Positions 2,715 through 55,347 of a stretch of DNA of 64,000 nt are shown here, one piece after another. The position numbers and the translations under genes were made by a program. The stretch is taken from IMG/VR virus record IMGVR_UViG_3300044534_000090. One strand, given 5' to 3'. The stretch comes from a virus. The notes beneath the pieces were generated by a model. The model saw only the letters and a program-made list of their open reading frames with translations. It made no database searches and had not been told where the DNA came from. The number at the start of each line of letters is the position of its first letter. Within the stretch, counting starts at the first letter, position 1.

Positions 2715-3473
2715 ATGGCCTCCGCAGAGCAGGAGCGGAAAGTCATGGCCACCCTCAACCTTCTTGTGGAGCATGCCCGCACGGATTGGCGGCGCATCTG
2801 GGACGGCCTGTCCGCCGTCGACCGGGCGGAGGTGGAGGGTGCCATCCGGGACGGCTGGGTGGCTGTTATCGAGAAGTACGGCGACATCGCCCAGACGCTC
2901 GCAGTCGACCTGTTCACCGACGAGGCGGAACGTCTCGGCATCCAGCCTGAGGTGAAACCCGCCGGCACGGTGCCGCCCGACAAGGCGACAGCACGTCTGG
3001 GATGGGCCATGGTGTCCGGGCAGGTTCTCGGGAACATGGACATCCTGTTGGACGAGTTCATCAAGCAGCCGTACAGGGACACGTTCCAGGACTCGGCTGT
3101 CGCCTCAGGTGCGGCGTGGGCCCGCGTCCCGAAGGGACCGGAGACGTGCAAGTTCTGTCTGCTCCTGGCCTCGCGCGGTGCCGTCTACGGATCGAAGTCC
3201 AAGGGCCTGTGGGCTGACGGGAAGATCGGACACCGCTATCACGGCTCCTGTGACTGCGCCGTGGTCCTTGTCCGTGGCCCCGAGGATTACCCGGCAGGCT
3301 ACGACCCGGACGCCATGTACGACGTCTACGACGTGGCCGCCCAGCAAGTGTTCGGCGACGGCCCCCGGTATTCAGGCCCCAAGACGGGGCCGAACAAGAA
3401 CTCCGGCTTGAAGGCCGTCCTCGCACAGATGCGATCGAACGCGATCGCCAACGGCGAGCACAACGTTCACTGA
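2715..3473 (+). CDS. MuF-like minor capsid / head maturation protein
   Basis: WARVP...TCKFC.LLASRG..Y and YHGSCDC motifs; between portal and scaffold. Confidence 0.75.
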   Translation: MASAEQERKVMATLNLLVEHARTDWRRIWDGLSAVDRAEVEGAIRDGWVAVIEKYGDIAQTLAVDLFTDEAERLGIQPEVKPAGTVPPDKATARLGWAMVSGQVLGNMDILLDEFIKQPYRDTFQDSAVASGAAWARVPKGPETCKFCLLLASRGAVYGSKSKGLWADGKIGHRYHGSCDCAVVLVRGPEDYPAGYDPDAMYDVYDVAAQQVFGDGPRYSGPKTGPNKNSGLKAVLAQMRSNAIANGEHNVH

Positions 3474-3589
3474 ATCTTCTGCCGCAAGGCAGTAGCAACC
3501 CGTTGCCGGAACGGCAACACACCCCCTGATGGTCGAATGCGCCCGCACAGGCGCTCGAACCAATCTGATAACGAAGGGAACACCTGAAA

Positions 3590-4165
3590 ATGCCGAAGGA
3601 CGAGATCCGCCTGGACGCCACCAGCGACGACGACAAGGGCCCCGACACAGTCGACGACCCGAACGACAACCCTCCCGCACAGGAGGACGACTCGGACGAC
3701 GAGAAGGACTGGAAGGCCCTGGCCCGCAAGTGGGAGTCCCGCGCCCGCAAGAACAAGGTTGCCGCCGACAAGAATCGGACGGCCGCCGAGAAGCTCGCGG
3801 AGATCGAGGAGTCCCAGAAGACCGAGTCTGAGAAGCAGGCCGAGAAGATCGCCGAACTGGAGAAGAAGGCGGCCCGGGCCGAGGCGCTCGAAACCCGGTA
3901 CAACGTGGCCACCAAGAAGGGAGTTCCTGCCGAACTCCTGGCCGGCCCCGGAGACGACGTCGAGGCGTTCGCCGACGCGCTGCTGAAGTGGCGAGGCACC
4001 GCCCCGGCCGAGAAGAAGGGCAGCCCTTCCCCTACCCAGGGGAAGCAGCCCGGGCGTACGGGGAACATGTCTCTGGATGAGCAGATCACGGCCGCCCATG
4101 AGGCTGGCGACAAGGATCTCGAAAAGCAGCTCAAGGTGATGAAGCTGGCCTATAAGGGCCAGTGA
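3590..4165 (+). CDS. Capsid scaffolding protein
   Basis: Acidic N-terminus, DWKALARKWESRA coiled coil; precedes MCP. Confidence 0.8.
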   Translation: MPKDEIRLDATSDDDKGPDTVDDPNDNPPAQEDDSDDEKDWKALARKWESRARKNKVAADKNRTAAEKLAEIEESQKTESEKQAEKIAELEKKAARAEALETRYNVATKKGVPAELLAGPGDDVEAFADALLKWRGTAPAEKKGSPSPTQGKQPGRTGNMSLDEQITAAHEAGDKDLEKQLKVMKLAYKGQ

Positions 4166-5222: not shown

Positions 5223-6650
5223 ATGAAAGTACAGATAGACGGCACGACCTATGTTCCGTCGGGAGAATCGGTTCCATCCATCGGCGTTGGCCTCTGCACA
5301 CGTAACCGTCGCGACATGGCCATGGAGACCGTGAAGGCATGGCGTGACCATCTGCCGGCGGGGGCGCGCCTGGTGATCGTCGATGACGCGTCAGACGTGC
5401 CGTTCCCAAACGCTGATTTCCGATTTGACGAGAACGCCGGGGTGGCCAGGGCGAAGAACAAGTGCCTGGAACTGCTGGCAGTCTGCCAGCACATCTTCCT
5501 CGTCGATGACGACATCCGGCCATTGACGGACGACTGGTGGAAGCCCTATGTGGCTTCGCGGGAGCCGCATCTCATGTGGATCTTCGACAAGCCCGCCGGC
5601 GTTACGAAACGGAAGGTCGAGATCCTCTTCGAGGATGATGAGATCGTCGCCTACCATGCCACACGGGGATGCCTCGTGTACGTCGAGCAACGTGTGCTCG
5701 ACCGTGTGGGCGGCATGGACCCGCGATTCGGCAAGTGGGGATGGGAGCACCAGTCCTGGAGCGACAGGATTCACGCGGCCGGCCTGACCACCGCCCGATA
5801 CATGGACGTGAAGAACTCTGAGGACCTGTTCGAATCGCTCGATCAGGAGGGCAAGGTCAAGTCCACGGCATCCGAGGAGGCCCGCAAGTTCTCCGAAGGC
5901 CCCGGGCTGGAACTGCGGATGCGGTCGCGCGATTCGGACGCCTACATCGAGTACCGAGACCTGTCCGACGTCGTGCTCACCTGCCTGATGACTGACCGGG
6001 ACGACCCGCAACGGTCGGGTCGGATGAAACACGATCCGTCTATGGCGGAGGACCTGCGCAAGTCCCTCAAGGGCGACCCGCGTCTGGTTGTGTTCCACAC
6101 GGGTGAGCTGAGCGTGAAGGGCGCCGAGATGGTGCCCGTCCGCCAGCAGTTCAACGTCTACTTCCAGCGGTGGCTTGAGTATTACCGCTACCTCAGACAG
6201 CATCCGGACATCGGATACGTGTGGTGTGTGGATGCCACCGACGTGCAGATGATCCGCGATCCCTTCCCGGAGATGGAGCGGGGCCAGTTGTACATGGGTT
6301 GGGAGCCGAAGACGCTACGCGATGAATGGATGCTGGCCCGCCACCCTGACAAGAAGCTTCAAGACTTCATGACGGCGAATCCGAACCTTCCATTGCTGAA
6401 CATGGGTGTGGTCGGCGGGGACCGTAACACTGTCATGGAGTTCGCCCAGAAGGTCACGGGCTTCTACTTCGATGACGAAATCGACTTCATCTACGGCTGG
6501 GAAACGAAACGCTGCGGGATTGGCGACATGGCCGTCGGCAACCTTGTGGCACGCCGCGACTTCGCCGACCGGATCTCCTCCGGACCGCACATCACGAACG
6601 TGTTCAAGTCGGAGAAGATCTCCCCCACAGCCTGGTGGAAGCACAGGTGA
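5223..6650 (+). CDS. Two-domain glycosyltransferase (N-terminal GT2 plus second GT-A-like domain)
   Basis: LVIVDDAS, NAGVARAKN, FLVDDD, GGMDPRFGKWGWEH; second DxD-like motif WCVDATDV and LLNMGVVGG. Confidence 0.85.
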   Translation: MKVQIDGTTYVPSGESVPSIGVGLCTRNRRDMAMETVKAWRDHLPAGARLVIVDDASDVPFPNADFRFDENAGVARAKNKCLELLAVCQHIFLVDDDIRPLTDDWWKPYVASREPHLMWIFDKPAGVTKRKVEILFEDDEIVAYHATRGCLVYVEQRVLDRVGGMDPRFGKWGWEHQSWSDRIHAAGLTTARYMDVKNSEDLFESLDQEGKVKSTASEEARKFSEGPGLELRMRSRDSDAYIEYRDLSDVVLTCLMTDRDDPQRSGRMKHDPSMAEDLRKSLKGDPRLVVFHTGELSVKGAEMVPVRQQFNVYFQRWLEYYRYLRQHPDIGYVWCVDATDVQMIRDPFPEMERGQLYMGWEPKTLRDEWMLARHPDKKLQDFMTANPNLPLLNMGVVGGDRNTVMEFAQKVTGFYFDDEIDFIYGWETKRCGIGDMAVGNLVARRDFADRISSGPHITNVFKSEKISPTAWWKHR

Positions 6651-20495: not shown

Positions 20496-21341
20496 ATGAG
20501 CAGAGCAGCGTGGTATCCGCGCGCCAACAGGACAGCTCAGAATTTCCAGCCAGCCCTGAACCGCCCGGCGATGCGCACCGTCAACGTGCTGGTGCTGCAC
20601 ACGACTGAGGGCACCTCGTGGCCGGGCTATGCGGGCGGCCGGCAGGCCCCGACCTTCACCATCAACTGCACGAGCGGGGCGCCTCAGGTGCGCCAGCATT
20701 TCCCGCTGCCGTGTGCCGCCATGGCGCTGGTGCAGCCGTCCGGGAGTCTGTCCACCAACCGGCTCAATGTGGCTCAGGTGGAGCTCGTCGGAACGGGCGG
20801 GTGGGCCAGCCCCGCCAACAGAAGCCGCCCCTACACCGTCTCTGGGCCTCACACTGACTGGACGAGGCCCGACGACATGATGCTCCGGGCGGTTGCTGAT
20901 CTCATTGCCTGGCTGCACAAGGAGTGGGAGGTGCCCCTGAAGGCGCCGATCCCGTTCGACAACTGGGCGGGCAACAACACCCACCGCATGACCGCCTCCC
21001 AGTGGGCCGGTTTCACCGGGATATGCGGCCACTCCCACGTGTGGGGCAACTACCACACCGACCCCGGATCATTCCCCATCGCCGCCTGCCTGAAGCTGGC
21101 CGCAGGCGGAACCGTATCAACCAATCCTCAGGAGGATGACATGCCCAGCGTTTCCGACATCTGGAACGGCAAGCTCCCTTTCAAGGCCACCCCGAAGGAC
21201 GACCGATTCACGGCCGGACGGCTGCTCGACGAGGCCGCCAGTCAGGCGACTTTCGCGGTCCGGGAGGCTCGCGCCGCCAAGGAGAAGGCCGAGCAGATCG
21301 ACGCCAAGCTCGACCGCCTCATCAAGAAGATGGGGGCCTGA
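20496..21341 (+). CDS. Endolysin, N-acetylmuramoyl-L-alanine amidase (Amidase_2)
   Basis: VLHTTEG, QVELVG, GICGHSHV..N.HTDPG. Confidence 0.9.
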   Translation: MSRAAWYPRANRTAQNFQPALNRPAMRTVNVLVLHTTEGTSWPGYAGGRQAPTFTINCTSGAPQVRQHFPLPCAAMALVQPSGSLSTNRLNVAQVELVGTGGWASPANRSRPYTVSGPHTDWTRPDDMMLRAVADLIAWLHKEWEVPLKAPIPFDNWAGNNTHRMTASQWAGFTGICGHSHVWGNYHTDPGSFPIAACLKLAAGGTVSTNPQEDDMPSVSDIWNGKLPFKATPKDDRFTAGRLLDEAASQATFAVREARAAKEKAEQIDAKLDRLIKKMGA

Positions 21342-21342
21342 C

Positions 21343-21786
21343 ATGACCGCCACTGATGCTCTGGCCGTGATCGCGGCCGCCCTCGTGTCCATCCTCGCTA
21401 CCGCCGTGGTCGCCCGGCCCACCATGTCGGCAGCCGCCAAGCGCGGCATCGCCCTTGTCCTCGCCGTCGTACTCGGCGCCGTCGCGGCCATCATCTCCGG
21501 GCAGATCACCGGGATCCCCGAGTCCGCCGTCGCCCTGGTGCAGAAGATCATCATCAGTGCGGCCGCCGTGGTGGCGGCGGCTCAGGGATTCCACCGGCAG
21601 CTCGCCGGCGCACTCGGCTCCCTGTCGGCCGCCACCTCCCCCACCCACTCGGTGGTCGAGGTCGCGCCTGCCGACGACGACATCATCCACCTGGATGACG
21701 AGGAGGCGGAGATCCCCCGCCACTCCGCAGACGAGGATGAGGCGCCCTCCGTCATCCCCGACGGCGAGGGCGTCGCCCGCAACTGA
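21343..21786 (+). CDS. Holin
   Basis: 2-3 TM segments, acidic C-tail, directly after endolysin. Confidence 0.75.
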   Translation: MTATDALAVIAAALVSILATAVVARPTMSAAAKRGIALVLAVVLGAVAAIISGQITGIPESAVALVQKIIISAAAVVAAAQGFHRQLAGALGSLSAATSPTHSVVEVAPADDDIIHLDDEEAEIPRHSADEDEAPSVIPDGEGVARN

Positions 21787-21793
21787 CCCCGGA

Positions 21794-21838
21794 ACGAAAG
21801 CCCCCCGTCTCGCATTGCGCGAGGCGGGGGGCTTTCGT
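21794..21838. terminator. Bidirectional intrinsic terminator
   Basis: ACGAAAGCCCCCCGTCTCGC-loop-GCGAGGCGGGGGGCTTTCGT between converging transcripts. Confidence 0.85.
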
Positions 21839-21841
21839 CGT

Positions 21842-21870
21842 CTCAGAACCCCCGCATACGCGGGGAAGAT
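21842..21870 (-). CRISPR. Solitary type I-E CRISPR repeat (candidate RNA anti-CRISPR unit)
   Basis: Minus strand ATCTT-CCCCGC-GTAT-GCGGGG-GTTCTGAG: 29 nt, 6-bp stem, tetraloop, 8-nt 3' handle as in I-E repeats. Confidence 0.75.
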
Positions 21871-21889
21871 AGTCGCCACACTTCCAGAA

Positions 21890-21920
21890 GCGCCCCCGCA
21901 CCATCACGGTGCGGGGGCGC
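21890..21920. terminator. GC hairpin with ATCAC loop
   Basis: GCGCCCCCGCACC-ATCAC-GGTGCGGGGGCGC; core CACCATCACGGTG identical to the 55164-55198 hairpin. Confidence 0.6.
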
Positions 21921-21982
21921 CTTTCCTGTTCCCAGAGGGACGTTGTCAACGGGACCCAACGGGGAGGAACCAGTTCAGGGTA

Positions 21983-22183
21983 TCACTTCGTCTTCTCGCA
22001 GATCGCCTTCACGGCCGGCTTCGACATCTTGAACTCCTTCGCGATGCTGTACATCGTGTCGCCGCTGTCGATCGCTTCACGTATGAGCAGGTTTCGGTCG
22101 AGTCGGGCCGCTTCGATCTGGTCTTCCAGATCCTTGACCCTGATGATTGACGCCTTGATCTTGCCACGTAGTCGGTTGTCCAT
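21983..22183 (-). CDS. Small HTH protein (Aca-like)
   Basis: 66 aa; GDTMYSIAKEFKMSKPAVKAI HTH; last gene of the leftward operon. Confidence 0.75.
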   Translation of the reverse strand: MDNRLRGKIKASIIRVKDLEDQIEAARLDRNLLIREAIDSGDTMYSIAKEFKMSKPAVKAICEKTK

Positions 22184-22236
22184 GGGTCTCCCCTTCCTGG
22201 CCGAGTGCTAGGGCCCCGGATGCCGGAGCCCTTCGC

Positions 22237-22482
22237 TCAGCCCTCCATCTCGATTATCAGACTCGCCGTTTCGAACAGCTCTATCTCCAACTTGGCCGCC
22301 GTGGTGCCCATGATCTTGGCAAGCCCCCGCAGTAGGTAGGTGCTCTGGTCCTGCACCTCTCGCATGGCCTGGCGTTCGCGAGTGCCGGCTGGGTACCTGA
22401 ACTCCCGGTCTATTGCACACCGTCGGTCCGCAATGAGTTGAGCGGCGGTGAACCTCAGGTTGTTGGCCTCTTCGGCGGTCAT
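22237..22482 (-). CDS. Hypothetical protein (candidate anti-defence)
   Basis: RBS GGAGG; own promoter-like element. Confidence 0.7.
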   Translation of the reverse strand: MTAEEANNLRFTAAQLIADRRCAIDREFRYPAGTRERQAMREVQDQSTYLLRGLAKIMGTTAAKLEIELFETASLIIEMEG

Positions 22483-22500
22483 GCTGTCCTCCTAGTTAGT

Positions 22501-22546
22501 CCCGTTGACACCCATTAGTAAACCACACTGTCTAGTGTCCGTCAAG
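22501..22546 (-). promoter_or_regulatory. Repeated promoter-like element, copy 1
   Basis: Plus CCCGTTGACA-N5-TAGTAAACCA-N15-GTCAAG; minus -35 TTGACG, 17 bp, TTTACT. Confidence 0.7.
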
Positions 22547-22588
22547 ACAAGGGGAGGGCCCCGGGGCCTTCCCTGGGGCCCACTCGGG

Positions 22589-22918
22589 TCAGTGGTAGCT
22601 GACTGGCGCCGCCTCGTAGGCCTCTCGTCGCGACATGCCGAGCCGCAACCGCGCGGCCTCGTACTCTTGCGCTGACTTCCTGGCACCCCGCCACCACATG
22701 TCCGCATTCGCGAAGTCCTGGCGCCGGGCGGCCCGGTTCGATCTCTCCATGGCGTCGCGGATCTCCTCGGCGCACTCAGCAAGCCGGCGCCGGTCTTGGC
22801 GCTCCCGCGAGTCGATCATGGCTGCCTCCCGAGGGTGCGCCTCCCGCCATGCCTGCCGCTCCTCAGCGGCCCTTTCCAGGGCCCTGAGCAGATCCTCAGT
22901 GGGTGTGTCGGCGCTCAT
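22589..22918 (-). CDS. Hypothetical helical protein (candidate anti-defence)
   Basis: RBS AAGGAG; 109 aa, charge-rich. Confidence 0.7.
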   Translation of the reverse strand: MSADTPTEDLLRALERAAEERQAWREAHPREAAMIDSRERQDRRRLAECAEEIRDAMERSNRAARRQDFANADMWWRGARKSAQEYEAARLRLGMSRREAYEAAPVSYH

Positions 22919-22990
22919 GGCCGGCTCCTTCCTGGCGCCTACTGGCGCCGATAGAGAGGTCCCCGGGATCTCTCCCGGGGACCTTGTTGA

Positions 22991-23377
22991 TCAGTTCCAG
23001 TAGCGCGGGTTCATCGGCTCCGGCCCGTCCCAGTCGAGTGCCAGCCCCAGCCGGGCCAGATCCTCCGGGCCCAAGTCCTCACCCTCCCAGTGGGTGACCT
23101 CCCGGCGGCCCTTGAGGTAGGACACCGTGACATCCCAGTAGTCCGAACCGTTGAGCCGGATATCAACCTCCATCCGGCGGGGTCGGGCGGCCCGTTCCCC
23201 GTTCGCGTTGAAGGGCAGGATGCGGGCGGTGAGCACCAGGCCGGCGGCGCCGTTGCTGCGGTAGCCCCGGATCTTGGCGCCCAGGGTCATGAGCCCTGAC
23301 AGGCCGATCTGTCGCTTTGCTTCGGCGCCGACCTCGCGGCGGTACTGCTGGTCACTCTCGGTGGCGGTGGCGGTCAT
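22991..23377 (-). CDS. Hypothetical protein (candidate anti-defence)
   Basis: RBS AAGGAGG; 128 aa. Confidence 0.7.
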   Translation of the reverse strand: MTATATESDQQYRREVGAEAKRQIGLSGLMTLGAKIRGYRSNGAAGLVLTARILPFNANGERAARPRRMEVDIRLNGSDYWDVTVSYLKGRREVTHWEGEDLGPEDLARLGLALDWDGPEPMNPRYWN

Positions 23378-23930: not shown

Positions 23931-24203
23931 CCGGTACAGATCCGGTACAGGTCAGATTGAGGCCAGCCCACGGCATCCCTTGTCAGAGCTGTACTCAGTA
24001 CATCCGCTATCGGACGTCGCAAACCATCGCAGACCATCACAGGCCATCGACGCCAAGCATGAGAAAGGGCCCGCTGGCTAGGCGTAACACCTACCAACGG
24101 GCCCTGGCAACGGGTGGAGCATAGGGGATTCGAACCCCTGACCTTCTCATTGCGAACGAGGCTTCACGCCTTGTCACAGAGACGGAGTACAGATCCAGTA
24201 CAG
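23931..24203. mobile_element. attP-like region of phage X
   Basis: Paired arm-type repeats GTACAGATCCRGTACAG at 23934-23950 and 24187-24203 flank the tRNA core; three RCCATC repeats at 10-bp period (24021-24050, Xis-like); terminator 24066-24104. Confidence 0.75.
24113..24160 (-). other. att core = 3' half of tRNA-Ala(CGC), not a full tRNA
   Basis: Minus CTCGTTCGCAATGAGAAGGTCAGGGGTTCGAATCCCCTATGCTCCACC: anticodon arm, T arm and 3' acceptor strand; 5' half absent. Confidence 0.85.
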
Positions 24204-55163: not shown

Positions 55164-55198
55164 GAAGCCCCCTCCACCATCACGGTGGAGGGGGCTTC
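55164..55198. terminator. Bidirectional intrinsic terminator
   Basis: GAAGCCCCCTCCACC-ATCAC-GGTGGAGGGGGCTTC. Confidence 0.85.
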
Positions 55199-55219
55199 GT
55201 GCGTCCGGGCCAGTGTCAG

Positions 55220-55347
55220 CGGGCCACCCCCGGGAAGCCGGGGAGGACAGCACATCACACAAAGTAAAACGGCTCACCCCCGCGCGGGCGGGGACTACAG
55301 TCGACCGATTCACAACCTCGGGTGACCCCCGCGTGAGCGGGGACATG
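55220..55347 (-). CRISPR. Type I-E CRISPR mini-array: 3 degenerate 29-nt repeats, spacers of 20 and 21 nt, no cas operon
   Basis: Minus repeats CATGT-CCCCGC-TCAC-GCGGGG-GTCACCCG (55347-55319), GTAGT-CCCCGC-CCGC-GCGGGG-GTGAGCCG (55298-55270), GTCCT-CCCCGG-CTTC-CCGGGG-GTGGCCCG (55248-55220). Confidence 0.85.

Follow-up and report, generated by a model that had tools for sequence, protein, structure and literature searches.

A solitary type I-E repeat in a sludge phage, probably the last repeat of a collapsed crRNA-mimic mini-array

How does a phage come to carry a single type I-E repeat, and what does such a repeat do? Solitary phage repeats have been catalogued in thousands, and the origin and activity of each are rarely clear. 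The question arises for phage X, one of two temperate siphophage genomes that are joined head to tail in a 64 kb stretch of DNA from a bioreactor-sludge metagenome (the window, meaning the whole stretch that was analysed). Phage X occupies about 1-38000 of the window and phage Y about 38000-64000. We conclude that the repeat unit of X is probably the last surviving repeat of a collapsed phage type I-E crRNA-mimic mini-array of the ‘Cracr’ type.

The portal of X shares 58% identity with portals of Propionibacterium freudenreichii phages. X and Y have one layout in common, with plus-strand lysis genes and a leftward accessory operon that converges on them. In both phages this operon consists of small orphan genes, with an HTH gene last, followed by attP, the integrase and immunity genes. 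In the prophage state the accessory operon would be placed at the attR end; in L184, a prophage of the Y lineage, it adjoins host genes. The X locus comprises the following features (minus-strand features are transcribed leftward with the operon):

21795..21837, no strand assigned: terminator B, a bidirectional hairpin (type B, loop CGCGCAATGCG), about 3-6 nt downstream of the X unit
21842..21870, minus: the solitary type I-E repeat unit of X, 29 nt, positions 1-22 canonical (5' flank, 7-bp stem, tetraloop)
21871..21889, minus: 19-nt segment TTCTGGAAGTGTGGCGACT, identical in X, L017, L018 and L152
21890..21920, no strand assigned: hairpin A, a 13-bp GC hairpin (terminator type A, loop region CACCGTGATGGTG), 19 nt upstream of the X unit on the transcript
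21944..21970, minus: decayed first module, with a remnant resembling the third repeat of Y at 21950-21970, the 3' half of its stem missing
21983..22183, minus: putative HTH gene (66 aa), the last gene of the leftward accessory operon of X

The syntenic locus in Y holds a mini-array:

55220..55347, minus: Y mini-array
55319-55347, minus: repeat R1
55299-55318, minus: pseudo-spacer psiS1, 20 nt
55270-55298, minus: repeat R2
55249-55269, minus: pseudo-spacer psiS2, 21 nt
55220-55248, minus: repeat R3
55165-55219, after R3: trailer and terminator

The 66-aa HTH protein matched no Pfam or PHROG family at threshold, and had no relative in IMG/VR or in species genomes. The protein neighbours of the X unit are small orphans and a weak HTH, with no known Acr or Aca family at threshold (Pfam, PHROG). 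No cas genes appear in the ORF listings of the window, most ORFs of which lack annotation. Searches with Rfam and ARAGORN yielded neither an RNA family nor a tRNA. Between 22500 and 23900 the minus strand holds three promoter/operator cassettes of almost the same sequence (TTGAC-N31-GTCAA, -10 region TTTACT), and a small orphan gene follows each of them.

The X unit is a genuine type I-E repeat by sequence and fold, minus the handle. Over its first 22 nt (TCTTCCCCGCGTATGCGGGGGT) it agrees fully (22/22) with array repeats from a digester MAG and from Sanguibacter; the repeat of Propionibacterium cyclohexanicum differs there by one nucleotide, a loop base. The RNA folds into a 7-bp stem with a tetraloop (-13.2 kcal/mol), and the 29-nt string occurs exactly once in the window. 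We built a covariance model of I-E repeats from 14 sequences, which included the X repeat and R1-R3 of Y, so that its scores overstate independence. With this model, exactly four units in the window score above 30 bits, R2 (40.9), R3 (36.4) and R1 (31.7) of Y and the X unit (31.2), and the next best match reaches 17.3 bits. Scoring of the X unit is strand-specific, with 31.2 bits on the minus strand versus 16.8 on the plus strand. The motif CCCCGC-N4-GCGGGG, on which the original prediction drew, is not of random frequency, as it occurs three times in 64 kb (once in X and twice in the Y array) versus 0.06 times expected from shuffles.

The last 7 nt, positions 23-29, read TTCTGAG in place of the normal 8-nt handle, and do not match the canonical handle of the clade, GTGAGCC(C/G). 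The repeat had been described as near-canonical, which thus applies to its stem-loop part and not to its end. The handle region reads GTTCTGAG, and pairwise alignment with the relative L152 reveals a deletion of the 8-nt handle. By analogy with the E. coli I-E site, Cas6e would presumably cut the X unit between 21850 and 21849.

Relatives of X were identified as Logan contigs encoding an HTH protein that is identical to the 66-aa protein or 88-89% identical to it. They are a handful, and the X form is represented without independent sequence variants. One contig, L017, is identical to X. In L152, hairpin A, the 19-nt segment and the stem-loop are the same as in X. Downstream of these come the handle GTGAGCCG, a pseudo-spacer of 20 nt, a second, degenerate repeat which is still able to fold, the trailer and finally terminator B. 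The pseudo-spacer of L152 recurs in L018, where the stem is altered and the second repeat truncated. In L153, L155 and L156, hairpin A is followed by a different promoter-gene cassette and no repeat. The cassette type of the X accessory operon is also present behind the hairpin in L153 and L155. Nine further relatives, found in IMG/VR via the endolysin, have no repeat and a different downstream gene order, and megablast of 20500-23000 against 50,697 phage records gave no match.

In pairwise alignment X equals L152 minus the 8 nt of the handle and minus about 58 nt, which comprise the pseudo-spacer, the second repeat and the trailer. A multiple-locus alignment pairs the X unit with R2, the middle repeat of Y; the prediction of an I-E repeat mimic in X at the locus syntenic with the Y mini-array is borne out. 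The pseudo-spacer of L152 is identical to psiS2 at 15/20 positions, its degenerate repeat aligns with R3, and the trailers of L152 and Y align as well. The full unit in the close relatives of X is therefore homologous to R2-psiS2-R3 of Y. Because the parts of L152 and L018 are shared with the distant Y lineage, in which the HTH protein has 232 aa, the long form is ancestral and X derived. Y was originally taken for an expanded version of a single element in X; X being a deletion derivative, Y is not an expansion of it.

The Y lineage, defined by homologues of the 232-aa HTH protein of Y, presents a graded series:

L187, 85% protein identity to Y: identical three-repeat array with identical pseudo-spacers
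L186, 83% protein identity to Y: two repeats, with an R2/R3 hybrid
L184/L185, 73% protein identity to Y: one bulged repeat; L184 lies within an NCBI genome
L188/L189, 53% protein identity to Y: no repeat

In L186 the first 14 nt of psiS1 are kept and the six distal nt are changed. Repeat counts in this lineage thus run 3, 2, 1, 0, from which it follows that solitary repeats arise repeatedly by recombination or deletion between repeats. A blastn search with the Y array against the 50,697 phage records gave no match.

The elements around the X unit fit the same history. The 19-nt segment aligns with the 3' part of psiS1 at 11/17 positions, and the common end CGACT, which had been pointed out from the first, is shared because the two are homologous. 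We read the segment as a probable pseudo-spacer remnant, its upstream repeat gone. Directly behind the HTH gene of X, and before hairpin A, lies the R3-like remnant, 80 nt upstream of the X unit and too decayed to score in the covariance model; it is a still older module, fully decayed. The remnant overlaps an inverted copy of the operator half-site of the cassettes (CCCGTTGACA, 21944-21953).

The X unit sits between two strong GC hairpins, and both had been pointed out at the start: hairpin A at 21890-21920, 19 nt upstream on the transcript, and a terminator closely downstream, about 3-6 nt away at 21795-21837. Terminator B is common to L018, L152, L184 and L186, and closes both the repeat module of X and the converging lysis operon. 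The further proposal that hairpin, segment and repeat form one unit does not hold. Hairpin A is a conserved terminator: it closes the HTH operon in L153, L155 and L156, relatives that lack a repeat, and its homologue in Y is the terminator that follows the array. In a terminator scan it was a plus-strand terminator, with a weak U-tract on the minus strand. Hairpin A was also considered as a repeat-like unit and rejected, as it gave no covariance-model match even at E <= 10 and is homologous to the Y terminator.

The pseudo-spacer of L152 and psiS2 are both about 35% GC in genomes of 65% GC. That they are AT-rich and conserved suggests a fixed, promoter-like target rather than immune spacers. 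We also considered an immune (mini-)CRISPR array and rejected it, since the pseudo-spacers are 20-21 nt rather than ~32 nt long, are conserved across lineages and gave no targets. Targets of the pseudo-spacers and of the 19-nt segment were sought with a sixth-base rule and shuffled controls. Matches were at chance level only in the window, the related phage loci, five host genomes, 400 Propionibacteriaceae genomes and 12 Micropruina cas3 upstream regions. The best match of psiS2, also at chance level, is the start of an acyl-CoA dehydrogenase gene. A search allowing 3 mismatches was too loose and yielded noise only. Scans for the pattern of handle plus pseudo-spacer found nothing in IMG/VR, and 9 chance matches in JGI metagenomes, none of which adjoins a repeat hairpin.

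The variant psiS1 of L186, with the preceding CCG (L186:2735-2754), matches at 21/23 nt a site in a Micropruina gene for the 2-oxoacid dehydrogenase E2 acyltransferase (L214, G169:C35:71758-71773, minus), and the motif recurs in paralogues. This match could reflect chance, the origin of the pseudo-spacer, or a target.

The hosts of X and Y are likely Micropruina or other Propionibacteriaceae of sludge. The core of R2 is identical (25/25) to I-E repeats of Micropruina and Propionicimonas MAGs, and cas8e is present in all five host-candidate genomes searched. The attP core of X (window 24118-24165) is the 3' end of a tRNA gene; Micropruina gives the best match among the five genomes tested (96% over 49 nt). 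Only the digester MAG and Sanguibacter were found to have the exact X-type repeat, and neither of these two genomes showed cas8e or a clear cas3. About 1,400 host CRISPR spacers gave only chance matches of 14-22 nt to the window, and therefore no host can be assigned from spacers.

Micropruina genomes carry, between a tRNA gene and cas3, CreR-like units in which a pseudo-spacer is flanked by two degenerate repeats:

L158 (G001), about 3800-4100: CreR-like units
L157 (G003), about 3330-3580: CreR-like units
L161 (G004), about 3760-3880: CreR-like units
L191 (G076), about 1110-1200: CreR-like units

Inspection by eye shows these pseudo-spacers to match a site in the cas3 upstream region, 100-200 nt further down, with an AAC or AAG PAM and in the Cascade-style pattern in which every sixth base is mismatched (positions 6 and 12). 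Because of these matches, the regulatory circuit that Cracrs exploit seems to be present in Micropruina. Units of this kind were also seen upstream of cas3 in two other species, P. cyclohexanicum (L167, about 1980-2060) and A. timonense (L168, about 2200).

Cracrs are viral crRNA-like arrays (Liu et al., bioRxiv 2024-26; 10.1101/2024.10.29.618823), of which 219 candidates have been catalogued. Those of type I-E have pseudo-spacers of 21-24 nt in 2- and 3-spacer arrays, and Cracrs are reported to hijack the host CreR circuit (10.1101/2024.10.29.618823). They are defined by a repeat-like unit and a short spacer-like sequence followed by a repeat or terminator, on a virus and outside CRISPR-cas loci, and by a match to a cas or creT promoter, in that at least 9 PAM-proximal nt agree with those of a CreR/CreA pseudo-spacer of the host (10.1101/2024.10.29.618823). 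The unit so described is found in L152, L018, Y, L187 and L186; in X the pseudo-spacer is deleted. No match of at least 9 PAM-proximal nt to host CreR/CreA was found in the five host genomes, the 400 family genomes and the 12 cas3 upstream regions, a set outside which the true host probably lies. Between psiS1 and the Micropruina CreR-like units the only common string is TTGTGA, in a different register. As the pseudo-spacers have no target there, the defining promoter match is lacking in the X/Y array family. Judged by its build, the family likely belongs to the Cracrs.

We propose the following scheme, which builds on the repeat identity, homology, deletion boundaries, copy-number series and polymorphism that the sequences show, and in which transcription, Cas6e processing and any anti-CRISPR effect of the X and Y arrays are what we infer. 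The intact array (L152, L018, Y) would be transcribed from the 3' end of the leftward accessory operon, and host Cas6e would cut the transcript into short guide-like RNAs, each consisting of the 8-nt handle, a 20-21-nt pseudo-spacer and the stem-loop. These RNAs may load into host Cascade, too short to license Cas3, where they would act as competitors of the immune crRNAs and probably as repressors of a host promoter. Two deletions in X, one of 8 nt and one of about 58 nt, took away handle, pseudo-spacer, second repeat and trailer, leaving only the stem-loop for Cas6e binding, preceded by the handle-less 19-nt segment. [quoted passage not shown] The product would be unable to nucleate Cas5e/Cas8e, and would therefore only soak up Cas6e, and perhaps Cas7e, in the manner of a Racr.

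Origin and present state have to be graded separately. That the X unit originated as a collapsed mini-array is very likely. For its present state, an inert or marginal relic is about an even call. A measurable Racr-like decoy, argued by analogy, is a tentative option that we would place behind it, and a state other than relic or decoy is improbable.

The most serious rival is that the X unit is a dedicated Racr, in which the repeat is actively maintained and the stem-loop product sequesters Cas6e and Cas7e in aberrant complexes. The deletion origin would then be the birth of a Racr from a guide-bearing array. Type I-E Racrs have already been validated, and the stem and loop of X are perfect and identical to those of real I-E repeats, so that the stem-loop can be read as retained by selection rather than decaying. 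In RacrIF1, moreover, the part upstream of the Cas6f cut is active, while the handle is dispensable and tolerates mutation (PMC10651486), which would suit the handle-less X unit. The end of an operon of small orphans and an HTH gene is a typical anti-defence setting; the neighbouring proteins of X, however, match no Acr or Aca family at threshold. The virus- or plasmid-borne solitary repeat units (SRUs) to which Racrs belong, of which about 2,100 viral ones have been catalogued, are intergenic matches that lack cas genes and have no second repeat, even a partial one, within about 100 bp, and often lie directly behind a promoter (Camara-Wilpert et al., Nature 2023, PMC10651486). In X there is a single covariance-model match at the locus and no cas gene in the ORF listings. 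The layout of an SRU had been claimed for X, but no promoter of its own was found upstream: neither a sigma-70-like site nor a cassette promoter of the accessory operon precedes the X unit, and on the transcript it follows the 13-bp hairpin A.

Population data, which are DNA contigs only, from sludge and digester samples, bear on the same rival. The X form reaches a depth of 236 in one run and is present in at least 6 runs, which counts for this rival. Yet close relatives do without the repeat. In one of them, 49 other letters replace 21776-21903, that is, terminator B, the repeat, the 19-nt segment and part of hairpin A; this relative has a depth of 616-624, and in sludge runs that contain both (X1, X6) it exceeds the X form 2.6- to 13-fold. 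In other contigs the intact stem-loop is joined to longer inserts of 78 and about 130 letters. As the X, repeat-less and longer forms co-occur, the locus is polymorphic within single samples. Parallel decay, in the bulged stem of L184 and in the first module of X itself, also speaks against active maintenance, and we hold a dedicated Racr to be doubtful. That the X unit is a working Racr born from a Cracr-type unit by deletion of handle and guide is rather unlikely; if it were true, the X unit and the 3-2-1-0 series would document a route from guide-bearing mimics to pure Cas6e/Cas7e decoys. A plausible driver of such a birth is that the targeted host promoter was mutated away, in a clade that runs CreR autoregulation.

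Two further rivals are very improbable. The X unit could be what is left of a phage mini-CRISPR whose spacers were real and directed against competing phages; viral mini-arrays in that role are known (cited in PMC10651486), and the locus varies among relatives. The pseudo-spacers of the family are nonetheless 20-21 nt rather than about 32 nt long. They are conserved even between phages that have only distant similarity in the neighbouring proteins, and none of them has a match in X, in Y, in relatives of the two or in the phage collection; in X itself no spacer remains. Alternatively, the unit could be a Cas6e-dependent 3'-end processing signal, which trims or stabilises the mRNA of the accessory operon and ties its expression to an active I-E system. 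In X as in Y it lies in the 3' UTR of the HTH operon, which would suit such a role, as would the property of Cas6 to remain bound to its own product, but relatives manage without a repeat, and we know of no precedent for such a signal. A chance GC hairpin of non-CRISPR origin within a multi-hairpin convergent terminator is hardly credible: the unit does lie between two terminator hairpins, which are common in a 65% GC genome, but its identity to real array repeats extends over the 5' flank and loop (22/22), its motif is 50-fold above expectation, its scoring is strand-specific, and it is homologous to canonical, handle-bearing repeats in L152 and Y.

Repeat mimics were also seen elsewhere. A high-GC viral contig, L020 (IMGVR_UViG_2784132147_000002), has I-E mimics at 820-905 and 2369-2401, namely a two-repeat mini-array and a separate solitary repeat, then a terminator. 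L021 (IMGVR_UViG_3300021426_000014), a low-GC phage, has a solitary I-E repeat mimic at 6487-6515. Streptomyces heilongjiangensis (L004:630-665) and S. ossamyceticus (L005:6840-6875) carry a solitary repeat, TCTTCCCCGCGTATGCGGGGGTTGTTCC, with GACT before it, about 5.4 kb from I-E arrays built on another repeat. This solitary repeat may be a crlRNA with a regulatory role in the chromosome.

Compared with known systems, the arrays of Y, L187, L186, L152 and L018 resemble Cracrs most closely in organisation. They are cas-less arrays of temperate phages, with I-E repeat-like units, pseudo-spacers within 20-24 nt, two or three units and a degenerate last repeat followed by a terminator, and the host family has CreR-like units at cas3. 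They differ from Cracrs in that their pseudo-spacers have no match to host CreR/CreA or to a cas or creT promoter in the genomes searched; X differs further in having neither pseudo-spacer nor handle, and the likely hosts of X and Y are sludge Propionibacteriaceae.

X shares with the Racrs (RacrIF1, RacrIE1-2) a cas-less solitary repeat mimic on a temperate phage, probably of the subtype of the host system; Micropruina and other Propionibacteriaceae, from which the host of X is inferred, carry I-E arrays and cas8e. As in RacrIF1, the stem-loop is intact, and the handle-less upstream segment corresponds to the part that is active there. Unlike Racrs, the X unit is not promoter-proximal and lies behind a terminator-like hairpin, and it is the deletion product of a guide-bearing unit, with the handle absent rather than merely variant. 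Host CreR/CreA crlRNAs have the same order as the phage units, a degenerate repeat, a short pseudo-spacer and a degenerate repeat, but they are chromosomal, form part of the cas locus and find their match upstream of their own cas3, whereas the phage units lie in an accessory operon and match nothing found.

X is thus a further example of known RNA counter-defence, and its added value is the natural series from mimic arrays to solitary repeats. The series cautions that a solitary repeat may be a fossil rather than a weapon. It extends RNA anti-CRISPR elements to Propionibacteriaceae phages of wastewater bioreactors, in whose hosts the type I-E systems appear to be under CreR-type self-regulation. 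The natural variants show a solitary repeat arising by collapse of a guide-bearing mimic array, and so link both known classes of RNA anti-CRISPR, Racr and Cracr.
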